A stretch of 5,095 nucleotides of DNA from a virus (taxonomy: Duplodnaviria; Heunggongvirae; Uroviricota; Caudoviricetes): the IMG/VR virus record IMGVR_UViG_2537562194_000019; one strand, 5' to 3'. The position numbers and the translations under genes were made by a program. A model generated the notes under the pieces. It was not told where the DNA came from. It worked only from the letters and a program-made list of their open reading frames with translations, and ran no database searches. Below, one piece after another: positions 1 through 5,095 of the stretch; the first letter of the stretch is position 1, and the number at the start of each line of letters is the position of its first letter.

Positions 1-10
1 ATTTACCACA

Positions 11-37
11 AATAAAAAAGCCTTCAGGACTGAAGGC
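11..37 (-). terminator. Rho-independent terminator downstream of the small moron gene
   Basis: Perfect inverted repeat GCCTTCAG (20-27) / CTGAAGGC (30-37); on the minus strand it is followed by a T-run (complement of the A-run at 11-19). The stop codon of the 24..221 ORF lies inside the stem. Confidence 0.6.
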
Positions 38-221
38 GTCTGTAACAACCAAACTGATAGTCTGCCAGACCCGCCATAACCAGCTGGGTCAGTATTAACT
101 GGCAGCGTTCGCGTGAAAGGTAAGTATTCTGCGCAATCTCCCCGACTGTCGCCGGGTCGGTAACGCTTAATTCATTAAACACCACTCTGGCGGTTTCTGT
201 CATATCCTGCTGTTTCAGCAT
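24..221 (-). CDS. Small (65 aa) putative winged-helix/HTH DNA-binding protein; moron between Q and the late region
   Basis: ORF in the track (24..257) begins with TTG; I place the start at the in-frame ATG 221..219 (MLKQQDMTETARVV...), preceded by a purine-rich stretch (GGGAAAAAGAC). Codon usage is E. coli-like (ctg, cag, gcg, ccg) and first codon positions are purine-rich. The segment TVGEIAQNTYLSRERCQLILTQLVMAGLA looks like a helix-turn-helix. Family assignment is not supported beyond that. Confidence 0.5.
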   Translation of the reverse strand: MLKQQDMTETARVVFNELSVTDPATVGEIAQNTYLSRERCQLILTQLVMAGLADYQFGCYRRLQS

Positions 222-343
222 GTCTTTTTCCCTTTTCCGGTTAACGTGACACACCAATAACTCTTGTCAAAAAAGCCAGCAAGCTGAAAGACCGGTATTC
301 ACCGCCACCAGCGCGTTTACTGTACTGACGCGATTTCAGTCAT

Positions 344-365
344 AAAAAACCCGCCAGGCGGCGGG
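344..365 (-). terminator. Promoter-proximal intrinsic terminator downstream of pR' (tR'-like)
   Basis: All-GC 6-bp stem CCCGCC (350-355) / GGCGGG (360-365) with a 4-nt loop; on the minus strand it is followed by TTTTTT (complement of A344-349). It lies about 45-65 nt downstream of the predicted pR' start. Confidence 0.6.
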
Positions 366-402
366 GTGTAAAAAATCTTCTAACGTCAGGCATAAAACGC
401 CC

Positions 403-442
403 ATCGTTAGGGCAAATTTACCACAGATTCGGGAAAAATCAA
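403..442 (-). promoter_or_regulatory. Q-dependent late promoter pR' with -10-like pause-inducing element
   Basis: Minus-strand read: -35 TTGATT (442..437), 16-bp spacer, extended -10 TGgTAAATT (420..415), then TGCCCT and AACGATGGG (408..400). From memory, this closely parallels lambda pR' (TAAATT -10 followed 6 nt later by the AACGAT sigma70 pause element). It starts 6 bp after the Q stop codon. Confidence 0.6.
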
Positions 443-447
443 CAAAG

Positions 448-1269
448 CTATCTGGTCACCTTTTTCAGTTGTTGTTCTGCCCATGCTTCTTCAATATCAA
501 ACTGCACCACCAGCGTATCGTAAAAACGTTTAACTGTTTTTTTCCATGTATCAAGAGATATGGCATCGGTTACATTACATATGGCATTAAATGCCTCCGT
601 TGAAGGTAATCTTTCATAGCCACGCCCACCACAACGCTGACAGTTTCTGAAAACCGGCACACCCTGTTTTTCCGACTCTTCACGATGAATGGCAACACCG
701 CGCCCACGACAATCTTTACAGGCAGTGGATACCTCTCCCTTCCCTCCACACTCCGGACAGGCAACTTTTACCACCTCCCTGACTTTTTTCCATTCCTCCC
801 AGTAAGACGGATACACGCCTTTTGTGCACTTTGCCCACACTGGCGGCTTACCATCCGGATACTGGATCTTGTTTGTAAAAACCTCGCTTTCAATAAATTT
901 TTTTCCGTGACAGCAGGGGCACTGTTTTTTGCTCGCCGCGCTACGGGCATAATCTTCAAACGCATACGAAGCCATAATACGCATCACTGCCGGTTTTATT
1001 TCTGCCGGGAGTTTTCTTAACGCCGCCACGCGATCACACCGACTGAGTGCATATTCTGTCAGCAATTCTGTTGCCCGCTCTCTGTCATTCATACTAATGC
1101 CCATTTTCCCAAGGAACGCAGAAAACCCCATCTCAGCCCGATTCTGTGTCATGCCCTGCGCGGCCATCACATCAGTGATACTCAGCGCATCTTTTGACGT
1201 TGAGGCCGATGCATCGGTCAGGCCAGGGGATTTTGGGGAGTAGTATTTCGGTAAATCTTCCAGTTTCAT
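448..1269 (-). CDS. Q: Late-gene antitermination protein Q (lambda Q family) with expanded zinc-finger region
   Basis: 273-aa ORF. The N-terminus (YYSPKSP, DVMAAQGMTQNRAEMGFSAFLGK) and C-terminus (YDTLVVQ...KKVTR) match my recollection of lambda Q (FHSPKSP, DVMAAMGMAQSQAGFGMAAFCGK, YDALVVQ...NAVTR). It carries four CxxC motifs of DnaJ-like form CxxCxGxG (C117/C120, C171/C174, C184/C187, C210/C213). Its ATG overlaps the rusA stop (ATGA at 1266-1269) and pR' lies immediately downstream. Confidence 0.85.
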   Translation of the reverse strand: MKLEDLPKYYSPKSPGLTDASASTSKDALSITDVMAAQGMTQNRAEMGFSAFLGKMGISMNDRERATELLTEYALSRCDRVAALRKLPAEIKPAVMRIMASYAFEDYARSAASKKQCPCCHGKKFIESEVFTNKIQYPDGKPPVWAKCTKGVYPSYWEEWKKVREVVKVACPECGGKGEVSTACKDCRGRGVAIHREESEKQGVPVFRNCQRCGGRGYERLPSTEAFNAICNVTDAISLDTWKKTVKRFYDTLVVQFDIEEAWAEQQLKKVTR

Positions 1270-1640
1270 TTTTTAACCTGCCCTTCAAGCATTATGGGGT
1301 AAATCTTCACCCCCAGACGTCCACCAGATACTGGCTTTCCACGTACAATATTGATTTCATCAAACTGCTCATCGTCCATTAACAACCCCGCGTGCGTCAG
1401 CGCATCCAGCGGTGCTTTCAGAATATTGTCCAGGTCACGGCGGCGCTTATCCGGTGGTTCTGCAATAATTTTTATTGCCAGCCGTCCGGACAGGCTTAAT
1501 TTCAGCCGCTGCTGGCGAACAATAAGCGCCACTGCCCGGCGATAACGCTCCCCGGCTTTTGATACAAAATATGTGCTGCCACGGCGTCGCCAGTAAGTGT
1601 TCACCGTCGGCGGGTAAGGTAAAACCAAATCTATGAGCAT
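1266..1640 (-). CDS. rusA: Holliday junction resolvase RusA (crossover junction endodeoxyribonuclease)
   Basis: 124-aa ORF with RusA-like motifs: LPYPPTVNTYWRRRG, PDKRRRDLDNILKAPLDALTHAGLLMDDEQ, SGGRL. SD GAGGTGA lies 3 nt before the ATG at 1640; the stop overlaps the Q start. Confidence 0.9.
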   Translation of the reverse strand: MLIDLVLPYPPTVNTYWRRRGSTYFVSKAGERYRRAVALIVRQQRLKLSLSGRLAIKIIAEPPDKRRRDLDNILKAPLDALTHAGLLMDDEQFDEINIVRGKPVSGGRLGVKIYPIMLEGQVKK

Positions 1641-1652
1641 CAGTCACCTCTT

Positions 1653-2702
1653 TTACCCGAGCACGCCAGTCGCAAAGGCGTGATCAAGAAAACGAAAAAT
1701 TAACTCAACCTGAGAGCCGTACTTTTTCTCAAACTTCAGCGGGTCTGCATGAAGTTCGTTGTGGTGCTCCCGGCACAACGGTAGCGTGAAAATATCGTGG
1801 GCCTTTGTTCCCACTCCCCCCTGACCATGACCAATCAGGTGATGCGGATCGTCAGCTGGCTTACCACAACACGCACACGGCTGTGTCTTTACCCAGCGCG
1901 TGTATTTCTCATTAACCCAACGGCGACGTTTAGGCCGCCTCATGAACGATTCAGGAGACTCCGGATCAACGGCGATACTGACAACCGTTTTTTTCTGTGG
2001 TGGATTTTGTTGCTGGTGGACGTGAAGTGGCAGCGCAATATTTTTTGTGCGCTGCTTCAGTATGCTGATGGCTGTCTGTTCTCCCGGTACGATGTCACTC
2101 TCACGGTATACGGAGCGGATTTTTTCCGCCGGTAATCCCAGCGAACGACGCGCTACTGCCTCAGGTAGTGCATCCACCACCTGATTGCAGGCCGCCCACC
2201 AGGATAATTCGGCCAGCGATAACTCCCTCTCCTGCGTACCGCTTATTGCGTGACGGATGACATCAATCATCCAGGCAACCAGATTCTGCTGAGCAAGTTG
2301 ATCGAGTGATTCTGATGTCTGGTCGCGCAGCTGGTTGTCGCAGTGCCAGCACAACACCATCGCGCCGGTACCGTAACGGTGAATGACCGTTTCGCTGTGA
2401 TGATAATCGCCGTGTGGCCACTGGCAGGATTTCACGTGACGTAATAACCAGTCAGACAGTGCACCAGCACCACCAGCAGCACGAATAACCCGCTCATCGC
2501 TGAAAAATGGCAGTAATGTTTTATCCTCTGCCAGCGGCTGGCGAACGGCGGGAACGACTCCGGACGGCAGACCGCGCATGTTTTTCGGTTCCGGCTCCAC
2601 CAATATTCTGCCGTTATGGAATGCTGACATTGATTCACGGCCCGGCTTAAGGACCACCATCCCGAGTTCCGGCACCAGAACAGGTCGAAGTAATACCCGC
2701 AC
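1653..2702 (-). CDS. DUF968 family prophage protein (YdfU-like) with C-terminal HNH-type motif
   Basis: 349-aa ORF starting at GTG 2702..2700, preceded by SD GGAGG with 4-nt spacing. The C-terminus has Cys/His-rich HNH-like motifs (CACCGKPADDPHHLIGHGQGG...CREHHNELH). The order DUF968 - rusA - Q is typical of lambdoid nin regions. The match to E. coli Qin YdfU is from memory, not alignment. Confidence 0.8.
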   Translation of the reverse strand: MRVLLRPVLVPELGMVVLKPGRESMSAFHNGRILVEPEPKNMRGLPSGVVPAVRQPLAEDKTLLPFFSDERVIRAAGGAGALSDWLLRHVKSCQWPHGDYHHSETVIHRYGTGAMVLCWHCDNQLRDQTSESLDQLAQQNLVAWMIDVIRHAISGTQERELSLAELSWWAACNQVVDALPEAVARRSLGLPAEKIRSVYRESDIVPGEQTAISILKQRTKNIALPLHVHQQQNPPQKKTVVSIAVDPESPESFMRRPKRRRWVNEKYTRWVKTQPCACCGKPADDPHHLIGHGQGGVGTKAHDIFTLPLCREHHNELHADPLKFEKKYGSQVELIFRFLDHAFATGVLG

Positions 2703-3054
2703 GTTACCTCCAGATGCGCTGCTGGAATGTGCGGGACGGACGCGGTGGGCATTCGGAATAAGGGAGCCTGACAGAGATTATCCAGTGACGACGATAGAAA
2801 CTGAGATCTTTCTGAAACTCGTAACCACGTCTGCGGTAGCACTGGATCAGCCATTCGGCCTGTTCTTCAGTGCATGGGTCATGCTGGAACCAGTCAGATT
2901 TGAATGCATGAGAACGCCGCCCATGCCTGCTGGCAGGGGCGGCGGAGTTATCCGAATTGTAAAATCTGGTATCGTGCGCCATCGGTTGTCTCTGCTGGCG
3001 CAGCAGGTGCCAGTTGTTCAGGCTGGCGTGCGGCAATATTGTATCTGATTTCTG

Positions 3055-3082
3055 TTGTCGTCAACAGGCAGTGTGCTATCAT
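3055..3082 (+). promoter_or_regulatory. Candidate sigma70 promoter and operator region of the parDE operon
   Basis: -35 TTGTCG (3055-3060), 16-bp spacer, extended -10 TGcTATCAT (3074-3082), about 35 nt upstream of the parD ATG. Short repeats CTATC (3076-3080 and 3094-3098) and CTAT/ATAG (3076-3089) could be an operator for the ribbon-helix-helix antitoxin. Confidence 0.4.
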
Positions 3083-3117
3083 CGAATAGTGTTCTATCCT
3101 ACTCCGGGAGGTTTACC

Positions 3118-3375
3118 ATGCGTACAACCCAACAATTCAGCATTACATTAACTAACGAGATGGCTGACATGGTGCGCGCCCGTGTGGCTTCCGGTGCCTA
3201 TGCTTCAGAAAGTGAGGTCATTCGTGAAGGGCTTCGCGCACTGAATGAGCGCGATAAAGCAATCGAAGCGTGGTTAACGCATTCAGCCGCCCCATCTCTC
3301 GATTCTATCCGCGAAAACCCAAACAACGGACGCTCCATTTCACAGGTTCGCGCCGCGATTCGAGCCGGGAAGTAA
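3118..3375 (+). CDS. parD: ParD-family antitoxin (ribbon-helix-helix, CopG/Arc-like), 85 aa
   Basis: ATG at 3118 is preceded by SD GGGAGG (3106-3111). N-terminal beta-strand FSITLTNEM followed by SGAYASESEVIREGLRALNERDKAIEAWL is typical of ParD antitoxins. The stop lies 5 nt before the toxin ATG. The upstream extension in the track (3055) begins with TTG and has no SD. Confidence 0.8.
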   Translation: MRTTQQFSITLTNEMADMVRARVASGAYASESEVIREGLRALNERDKAIEAWLTHSAAPSLDSIRENPNNGRSISQVRAAIRAGK

Positions 3376-3380
3376 TCTGC

Positions 3381-3680
3381 ATGACATATGAAGTCATCAT
3401 TACTCCTGAGGCCGAACAGCAGATAATCAACCTGCACAGATATATAACGGAGAAAGCAGGGAGCGTCATTGCTGACAATTATGCCAATGCACTTCTTGAT
3501 TATCTTGATGGGTTTTCCACATTCCCGCATCGGGGCAATAAACGCGATGATATTCGACAGGGAATGCGGGTAACTCACTTCCGCCACAGAACGATTATTG
3601 CTTTTGCCGTTGATGGCAATAAAGTCTTTATCGCAGGTATTTATCATGGCGGACAAAGTTATGAAACCGATTTCTTATAA
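3381..3680 (+). CDS. parE: ParE/RelE-superfamily toxin, 99 aa
   Basis: Starts at the internal ATG 3381 of track ORF 3270..3680 (MTYEVIITPEAEQQIINLHRYI...). Size, position directly after the RHH antitoxin, and ParE-like signature (conserved basic and His residues, C-terminal IIAFAVDGNKVFIAGIYHGGQ) support the call. Confidence 0.8.
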   Translation: MTYEVIITPEAEQQIINLHRYITEKAGSVIADNYANALLDYLDGFSTFPHRGNKRDDIRQGMRVTHFRHRTIIAFAVDGNKVFIAGIYHGGQSYETDFL

Positions 3681-3763
3681 ACTTTTCCCCACATAATTCC
3701 AGTATTAGAATAAACCGTCCGCCCCCTCTCTTACTGGCGGATTCGTAGGCTATATAAATCAAA

Positions 3764-3798
3764 GATCCCCGACTCATGTGTGTGTCGGGATCTTTTTT
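3764..3798. terminator. Bidirectional intrinsic terminator between convergent parE (+) and the DUF551 operon (-)
   Basis: Hairpin GATCCCCGAC (3764-3773) / GTCGGGATC (3784-3792), 9 bp with one bulge and a 10-nt loop, followed on the + strand by TTTTTT (3793-3798). On the minus strand it is followed by TTTGATTT. Confidence 0.65.
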
Positions 3799-3805
3799 CA
3801 GCAAA

Positions 3806-3889
3806 TTATCCCCAGCGGCAAATCGAATACACAACCAGCGCCACCGCCATTGCAATACCAACATTTGAGAAGGCTTCAGGCCAGCTCAT
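3806..3889 (-). CDS. Candidate 27-aa small hydrophobic (membrane) peptide, translationally coupled to the DUF551 gene
   Basis: Not in the supplied track (below its size cutoff). ATG 3889..3887 overlaps the DUF551 stop (ATGA) and is preceded by a consensus SD AAGGAGGTG 5 nt upstream. Translation: MSWPEAFSNVGIAMAVALVVYSICRWG, ending at TAA 3808..3806, 8 nt before the terminator. Confidence 0.4.
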   Translation of the reverse strand: MSWPEAFSNVGIAMAVALVVYSICRWG

Positions 3890-4239
3890 TGGCGCACCTC
3901 CTTCGGCGGTTCTGGTAGCGGCATCCAGTGTGTGGCTTCACACACGATGGGCGCACCGAAACACTGCGCATACTGGAAGTCACCCGTATTATCCAGGTTA
4001 AAACCTGTAAACTGTTCACCCGTGCTGGACACAAACAGTTGTACATCAACACCAACTGGCGGCATTCGCTCACTACAGCTTATCCAACCATCCGGAGTTA
4101 CCGGAGAATTGCCAGCCTTGCGCATGGCAATCTCCATGATTTCAACCATATCTCCTGGTGGAATTTTACAATGCTGACCAATATGCCTCTGCTGCCTGGC
4201 ATATTCGAGGATGTGCTCCAGCTTGATACGATTAATCAT
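3886..4239 (-). CDS. DUF551 domain phage protein
   Basis: 117-aa ORF with the characteristic C-terminal DUF551 motifs (GWISCSERMPP...THWMPLPEPP). SD GGGAGA lies 6 nt upstream; the ATG overlaps the stop of the preceding ORF (ATGA at 4236-4239). Confidence 0.75.
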   Translation of the reverse strand: MINRIKLEHILEYARQQRHIGQHCKIPPGDMVEIMEIAMRKAGNSPVTPDGWISCSERMPPVGVDVQLFVSSTGEQFTGFNLDNTGDFQYAQCFGAPIVCEATHWMPLPEPPKEVRQ

Positions 4240-4607
4240 GATTTATCTCCCTGAAGCATGGCTTCGCGGCAGTCGTTCCAGCCTTCAGCATAATCACTAT
4301 ACGCAAGAGGCCAACCGTTTCTGTATTCACGCGGCAACTTATCAGGCACTACCAGCGCTGGCGGCGCGGAGAATAGTGGTTTAGGTGATATTTCCGCACG
4401 TTTTGCGTATGCTTCAACTGTGTCAGGGTTAAACAGGATTATGTTTTCACCGCATTCCCACGCTATCGGTTCTGCTTCCAGCGATGCCAGTGCAATTTTG
4501 AATAGCTCACCCTCTACCCTGGCCATCTCTGAATTAGGGTAACAGTTCGCAACCGCTATTTTTAATTTGGCTTCCTTGATTAATTGCTCTTTGGTTAATT
4601 CAGTCAT
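4236..4607 (-). CDS. Hypothetical prophage protein (123 aa)
   Basis: Long ORF co-directional with and coupled to the DUF551 gene. Start ATG 4607 with GGTGG about 9 nt upstream. No family recognised by eye. Confidence 0.65.
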   Translation of the reverse strand: MTELTKEQLIKEAKLKIAVANCYPNSEMARVEGELFKIALASLEAEPIAWECGENIILFNPDTVEAYAKRAEISPKPLFSAPPALVVPDKLPREYRNGWPLAYSDYAEGWNDCREAMLQGDKS

Positions 4608-4711
4608 TTTTCATTACCACCCTTTCAGGCGGTCTCCTTATGTTCTGAGGGTGCAGGAATCCCTCCGGTTAAGGATTAAATTTTTAACAGTGCTGAATTT
4701 AATTATTCAGT

Positions 4712-5059
4712 TCAGGATTTTGACGCCCTGCGTATCCGCGCTTTCGCGTTACGCTCAATCTGAATTAACTTTTCTATATTTTTTCGCCTTTCCTGTTCCT
4801 CCTGGCGCAATAGCTTTACATCATCTGCCAGTCTGGTTTCTCTTTTCGCCACAGAGAGCATCCAGTCAAACGGCTCCACAACTGAACCGCAGATTTTACA
4901 GCGGACCTGACGCTCTTTTTCGTCAACCCGGACAGAGGCGTGATGGCAGTATGGTCTTTCCGATGGCTCATAAAGAAAATTAACCTGATTACGTGGGTCA
5001 TCCTCTTTTACCGGAAATAAAACAATATTACTTAACTCATCTTCTGGTTTTATTTCCAT
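4712..5059 (-). CDS. Hypothetical prophage protein (115 aa) with putative Cys/His metal-binding motif and basic coiled-coil C-terminus
   Basis: Start placed at ATG 5059..5057 (MEIKPEDE...), which has a strong SD AAGGAGAGGAG directly upstream. The track's longer version (start 5092) would begin inside the loxP-like sequence. Motif YCHH...x15...CKIC; the C-terminus LLRQEEQERRKNIEKLIQIERNAKARIRRA is charged and helical. Confidence 0.6.
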   Translation of the reverse strand: MEIKPEDELSNIVLFPVKEDDPRNQVNFLYEPSERPYCHHASVRVDEKERQVRCKICGSVVEPFDWMLSVAKRETRLADDVKLLRQEEQERRKNIEKLIQIERNAKARIRRASKS

Positions 5060-5075
5060 GCTCCTCTCCTTCGTA

Positions 5076-5095
5076 ATAACTTCGTATAGCATACA
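5076..5095. other. Partial loxP-identical recombination site, truncated by the window end
   Basis: ATAACTTCGTATA (5076-5088) plus GCATACA (5089-5095) is a 20/20 match to the left 13-bp arm and first 7 nt of the spacer of P1 loxP (ATAACTTCGTATA GCATACAT TATACGAAGTTAT). Confidence 0.7.

Follow-up and report, generated by a model that had tools for sequence, protein, structure and literature searches.

The record analysed here ends in bases that read as part of the loxP site of phage P1, which raises the question of whether a Cre/lox site, engineered or natural, lies in this prophage or whether the bases came from elsewhere. The window, that is, the whole 5,095-nt stretch of DNA, is the entire NCBI contig AEZV02000087.1 (5095 nt; GCA_000194355.2), with no bases past 5095; the AEZV02000087.1 locus, taken as reverse complement, was identical to window positions 1712-5095. 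Contigs with the AEZV prefix belong to a draft genome that the J. Craig Venter Institute (JCVI) submitted for E. coli O111:H- JB1-95 (PMC3359367, Table 1).

The terminal bases of the window are ...CATGCTCCTCTCCTTCGTAATAACTTCGTATAGCATACA. Positions 5076-5095, ATAACTTCGTATAGCATACA, matched exactly to the left arm of loxP and seven of the eight spacer bases, which confirmed the reading of the final 20 bases as P1 loxP sequence in the first-pass annotation. The two components were:

5076-5088, plus strand: loxP 13-nt left arm, ATAACTTCGTATA; an exact match inside the linker described below, and the sole arm match in the window
5089-5095, plus strand: the first seven of the eight loxP spacer bases, GCATACA; the record ends here

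No full loxP was present in the window. Neither the second, inverted arm nor any other arm-like sequence was found there with up to two mismatches permitted, and no recombinase gene was annotated. The match to a known synthetic sequence was longer than the 20 nt first noted, covering 24 nt from position 5072 and starting with CGTA. Approximately 3.6e-11 chance matches of this 24-mer were expected in the window, bearing out the earlier judgement that a chance match was very unlikely. The lox bases had also been placed 17 nt upstream of the start codon of a minus-strand gene, just past its Shine-Dalgarno sequence (SD), and this was correct: the ATG lies at 5059-5057 and the SD-like GGAGAGGAG at 5061-5069.

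To locate the end of the native DNA, the whole window was searched by megablast against 5,426 complete E. coli genomes. Window positions 1-5071 were 100.0% identical to the O111 chromosomes 95NR1, 95JB1 and 8B, and many other O111 strains showed 99.8% identity. Identity of 100% was restricted to the Adelaide outbreak strains and strain 8B. All alignments ended at 5071, across thousands of records. By string comparison, the 95JB1 chromosome, around its record position 1524663, equalled the window byte for byte over 1-5071; after the equivalent of 5071 it read TGATGCGAATGCCAGCGACG..., whereas the window read CGTAATAACTTCGTATAGCATACA. The finished 95JB1 chromosome thus has the native continuation TGATGCGAATGCC... 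into an ea22-like gene, without lox. The non-native portion of the window amounts to 24 nt (5072-5095), bases that the finished 95JB1 and 95NR1 chromosomes do not share with it. The native chromosomal site at the break, TTTGATGCGAATGCC, was not lox-like, and no lox arm was found within the 8 to 13 kb examined round the locus in these two chromosomes. The resulting division of the window was:

1-5071, no strand assigned: genuine E. coli O111 defective lambdoid prophage DNA with Q, RusA, DUF968, ParDE, DUF551 and hypothetical genes; byte-identical to 95JB1
5071/5072, no strand assigned: breakpoint between native DNA and linker, where 100% identity to 95JB1, 95NR1 and 8B ends

The proposal that DNA past this point would not be the native continuation of the operon therefore holds, as the window departs from 95JB1 after 5071. 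The comparison with the parental genome that had been suggested for this locus returned a native, lox-free sequence in finished 95JB1. From the names and the 100% identity, we infer that JB1-95, as sequenced at JCVI, and 95JB1, the source of the finished genome, are one isolate; neither JB1-95 nor AEZV is mentioned in the SMRT paper that describes 95JB1 and 95NR1.

The native continuation, comprising the ea22-like and DUF4406 genes, was found at two to three places per O111 genome or record. Repeated sequence is a typical cause of contig breaks, and the repetition gives the assembler an ordinary reason to stop there. The break falls inside the ead/Ea22-like gene, 35 nt before its native 3' end. 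In 95NR1 this CDS occupies 7538-7999 of the comparison stretch L001, equivalent to 5037-5498 in window numbering (offset 2501), and overlaps the start of the neighbouring gene. The native genes at the break were:

5037-5071, minus strand: last 35 nt of the native ead/Ea22-like gene, including the stop codon (RefSeq annotation of 95NR1)
4712-5059, minus strand: native 115-aa hypothetical phage gene, WP_000403787.1; the first complete minus-strand gene, unaffected by the artefact

The 115-aa gene sits 37 nt from the end of AEZV02000087.1. A mechanically called ORF at 4712-5092 (minus strand, 126 aa) takes its ATG, at 5092-5090, from the lox spacer. This ORF falsely lengthens the native 115-aa gene by 11 codons at its N-terminal end; the native start, at 5059, has a good SD, and the extended 126-aa product is not on record for any gene.

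Several features of the surrounding prophage were also noted. A ParD/ParE toxin-antitoxin pair (3118-3375 and 3381-3680, plus strand) lies on the opposite strand, between early-left-type genes (DUF551, ea22) and nin-region genes (DUF968, RusA, Q). No immunity or replication region was present between the ea22/DUF551 and nin/Q genes (window 1-5071; L001 1-13572). The prophage adjoins yciI-kch, with a small 'recombinase family protein'. Located 3' of Q is a layout of the Stx-phage type (DNA methyltransferase, tRNA-Met, DUF6645), without stx. The prophage appears to be a defective, rearranged lambdoid element that is conserved in O111 strains.

The clue to the origin of the terminal bases was CGTA, the four bases outside loxP, which led to comparison with the linker of the 454 Titanium paired-end method. 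The Roche 454 GS FLX Titanium paired-end linker is a 42-bp sequence, TCGTATAACTTCGTATAATGTATGCTATACGAAGTTATTACG and its reverse complement, and it serves also as a Cre-lox mate-pair adapter for Illumina. Window positions 5072-5095 were identical at 24/24 bases to the published 42-nt linker 5'-CGTAATAACTTCGTATAGCATACATTATACGAAGTTATACGA-3', from its first base and including the non-loxP CGTA prefix. This corresponds to the first 24 nt of the reverse-complement orientation. The match starts precisely at the base where identity to natural genomes ends, at the genomic breakpoint and at a contig end. The match is incomplete, a point against this origin: the window has only 24 of the linker's 42 bases, since the record terminates at linker nt 24; the remainder of the linker would be TTATACGAAGTTATACGA. 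The feature was entered as follows:

5072-5095, plus strand: remnant of the 454 Titanium paired-end/Cre-lox mate-pair linker, nt 1-24, CGTAATAACTTCGTATAGCATACA; 24/24 identity, non-genomic

The same linker is described in several published protocols. Both of its orientations, including 5'-CGTAATAACTTCGTATAGCATACATTATACGAAGTTATACGA-3', are listed as mate-pair adapters to be screened out (PMC5199103). It is named the 'biotinylated 454 double-stranded linker' in another study (PMC7038657), is given elsewhere as the adapter of a Cre/loxP mate-pair library (PMC5710592), and a further library protocol uses '42-bp loxP linkers' with Cre circularisation (PMC6992861). The Stx2-phage paper contains no statement of the sequencing technology used for AEZV.

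The linker was also embedded in other public assemblies. The full 42-mer was found in RefSeq 'complete' E. coli records of S56, K-12 GM4792 and a PMV-1 plasmid, with the chromosome of S56 carrying it at three places. The positions recorded were:

NZ_CP010242.1, 1307675-1307716: one example of the three linker copies on the S56 chromosome (L004 301-342)
NZ_CP011342.2, 3780235-3780276: linker in one of two K-12 GM4792 records
NZ_CP011343.2, 2968337-2968378: linker in the other K-12 GM4792 record
NZ_CBTO010000001.1, nt 30-71: linker in the PMV-1 plasmid record

One of the GM4792 copies sits within an annotated glycosyltransferase family 9 CDS. The linker in the S56, GM4792 and PMV-1 records is probably uncorrected assembly contamination.

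A wider scan for the exact 42-mer was performed on one genome per bacterial and archaeal species. It returned 94 stretches from many phyla, among them Paracaedibacter, Legionella tunisiensis, Gemmata, Leptospira, Kitasatospora, Dechloromonas, Litoribacter, Ahrensia, Paenibacillus, Xenorhabdus and Streptococcus macacae. These stretches contained 121 copies with 116 distinct 6-nt flanks. Such a diversity of flanks fits random fragment ends rather than a mobile element or a functional site. Several copies lay no more than approximately 50 nt from a contig end, for example at nt 4-45 of a 7573-nt Paenibacillus contig and at 7344-7385 of a 7396-nt Legionella contig. The full linker was also contained in Leptospira contigs named 'ctg1134...', a naming that we take to be JCVI style; for the library used in the JB1-95 assembly, its presence in contigs so named is suggestive at most. 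By comparison, approximately 670 natural P1-like plasmids matched linker positions 3-39 only (TA + loxP + T).

Multiple copies of the linker were seen in some assemblies. Litoribacter populi scaffolds carried four copies at a spacing of approximately 123-129 nt, and Candidatus Paracaedibacter symbiosus carried dozens; examples among the 94 linker-containing stretches are L021 (194-622), L042 (147-557) and L018. The repeated copies suggest that the assemblies of these two species are heavily contaminated with linker.

Based on these data, the terminal 24 nt of the window are very probably an untrimmed 454/Cre-lox library linker, an assembly artefact that does not belong to the genome. Direct observations were the match to the linker sequence, a breakpoint exact to the base, a record that stops within the linker, native DNA past this point in the finished genome and the occurrence of this contaminant in other assemblies. 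We stop short of a firmer statement because the identity of the two stocks and the type of library are both inferred.

In libraries of this kind, one linker bridges the two ends of a fragment after Cre has acted, and the circles are re-sheared and sequenced. Reads from such Cre-bridged circles therefore run from one genome end through the 42-nt linker into the other genome end, and software must locate and excise the linker. The preceding steps are the shearing of genomic DNA to several kb, ligation of the loxP linker to both ends and circularisation by Cre (PMC6992861).

For AEZV02, a 454 paired-end or Cre-lox mate-pair library was presumably used, and the read-level history would have been as follows. 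A sheared genomic fragment would have ended at the base corresponding to 5071, a position that would be merely where one such fragment happened to end, and the loxP linker would have been ligated there. Cre would have circularised the linker-bearing fragment, and the circle would then have been re-sheared. A read would have run from the prophage into the linker, halting after 24 linker bases, and the partial linker may have been missed by trimming. With this linker-tailed read outermost at a repeat-induced contig end, the assembler would have put the tail into the consensus. A partial adaptor at the very end of a draft contig is a classic sign of an untrimmed read tail.

The first-pass annotation had favoured either an engineered Cre/lox product or a natural lox site. 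What stands of this is that the bases are real loxP sequence from Cre/lox technology; a genomic scar or cassette and a natural site are not upheld, as CGTA, the breakpoint and the end of the record all fit the linker and 95JB1 is native here. Engineering of the sequenced stock, with a chromosomal Cre/lox scar or floxed cassette in place of the DNA from inside the ea22-like gene outwards, would account for the exact arm and spacer and for the abrupt junction with native DNA, and deletion scars and floxed resistance cassettes in E. coli likewise have canonical loxP abutting chromosomal DNA abruptly. The breakpoint, moreover, spares the SD and start codon of the downstream gene, which could resemble deliberate design. 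However, native DNA and loxP are separated by precisely the CGTA of the library linker, and the record ends inside the site with nothing but 24 linker bases after the native DNA: unlike engineered constructs, it has no marker, cassette, vector or primer-derived sequence. The junction 36-mer was absent from the complete E. coli genomes and from the genome_contigs, viral_contigs and metagenome_contigs collections, and the phage collection gave partial mosaic matches only (roughly 92-99%), with no lox. Finished 95JB1 has native sequence here. We know of no engineering of JB1-95, which we take to be a wild-type clinical isolate. It appears simply as an O111:H- strain in the JCVI survey of STEC drafts (PMC3359367). 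Engineering of this locus is thus considered very improbable. A fortuitous half-site, that is, native phage DNA resembling loxP by chance, would agree with the visibility of only one arm. It was refuted by the chance expectation given above, by the alignments ending at 5071 and by the native sequence in finished 95JB1; no natural relative has these bases.

A natural event or chimera would link the prophage to the loxP of a resident P1-like plasmid, by Cre-mediated or illegitimate recombination or by mis-joining. Both 95JB1 and 95NR1 are reported in their SMRT paper to have a P1-like plasmid. In 95JB1 this is p95JB1A (NZ_CP021336.1, 86.9 kb), which encodes a C1 repressor and, in the cre position (32710-33741), an integrase of 343 codons; its loxP, at 31854-31887, is exact. 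The earlier statement that nothing P1-like was around is correct for the window, which has no P1 DNA or cre, but not for the strain, given this plasmid. Its companion, that P1 has no DUF968, fails for the P1-like p95JB1A, which has a DUF968 gene. The DUF968, ead/Ea22-like and DUF551 genes of the plasmid belong to the same families as those in the lambdoid prophage of the window, and its ea22-like, DUF551 and DUF968 genes could favour mis-assembly. Further coordinates of interest on p95JB1A are 24244-25287 and 17127-19490.

The flanks were compared base by base. The window shares with P1 loxP, as on p95JB1A, the 13-nt left arm, seven spacer bases and the preceding TA, and diverges from position -3 outwards (G in the window vs C). 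On the plasmid, loxP is flanked by GGACCTA on the left (...CTTCGGACCTA) and CTTAAGG on the right, and the sequence reached after the full loxP is CTTAAGGGTTATTGAACATG...; another P1-like plasmid, pTB-nb1, has the same GGACCTA left flank. In the window, the left flank is instead CTTCGTA (...CTCCTTCGTA). C5072 agrees with P1 only, G5073 with the native chromosome only, and T5074 and A5075 again with P1 only. Given this mixed agreement, no single crossover between chromosome and plasmid yields CGTA, whereas the linker accounts for all four bases. In practice, the discrimination from a natural P1 flank rests on CGTA, namely on G5073 in place of the P1 C and on the lack of any such crossover. Furthermore, Cre exchanges strands within the spacer, so that an intact left arm would bring its P1 flank along and not directly adjoin the chromosome. 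The window also differs from P1 loxP in having no P1 DNA, cre or second arm, the site is absent at this locus in the finished genome, the native sequence at the break is not lox-like, and the finished genomes are without such a prophage/plasmid junction. A natural P1 lox origin was rejected on the flank sequence and the mechanics of the Cre crossover, leaving recombination or mis-joining with the plasmid a minimal probability, slighter still than that of engineering. Equally slight is the chance that the JB1-95 stock truly has a chromosomal lox junction in its defective prophage, acquired by capture or integration with the Cre/loxP of the P1-like plasmid, with CGTA coincidental.

With an untrimmed linker as the preferred reading, and as judged from the finished 95JB1 and 95NR1 chromosomes, which are native here, no lox site would exist at this locus in the bacterium, and the terminal bases would for that reason be biologically unimportant. 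Their interest is as a clear case of a public assembly contaminated by a library linker. Contamination of this type can pass for genetic engineering, for example in screens for engineered organisms, or for P1-related biology, and here the linker tail generates the false ATG-extended ORF at 4712-5092. RefSeq 'complete' E. coli genomes and species-representative genomes of many taxa still contain the 42-mer, and scans for lox sites should mask CGTA-loxP-ACGA.
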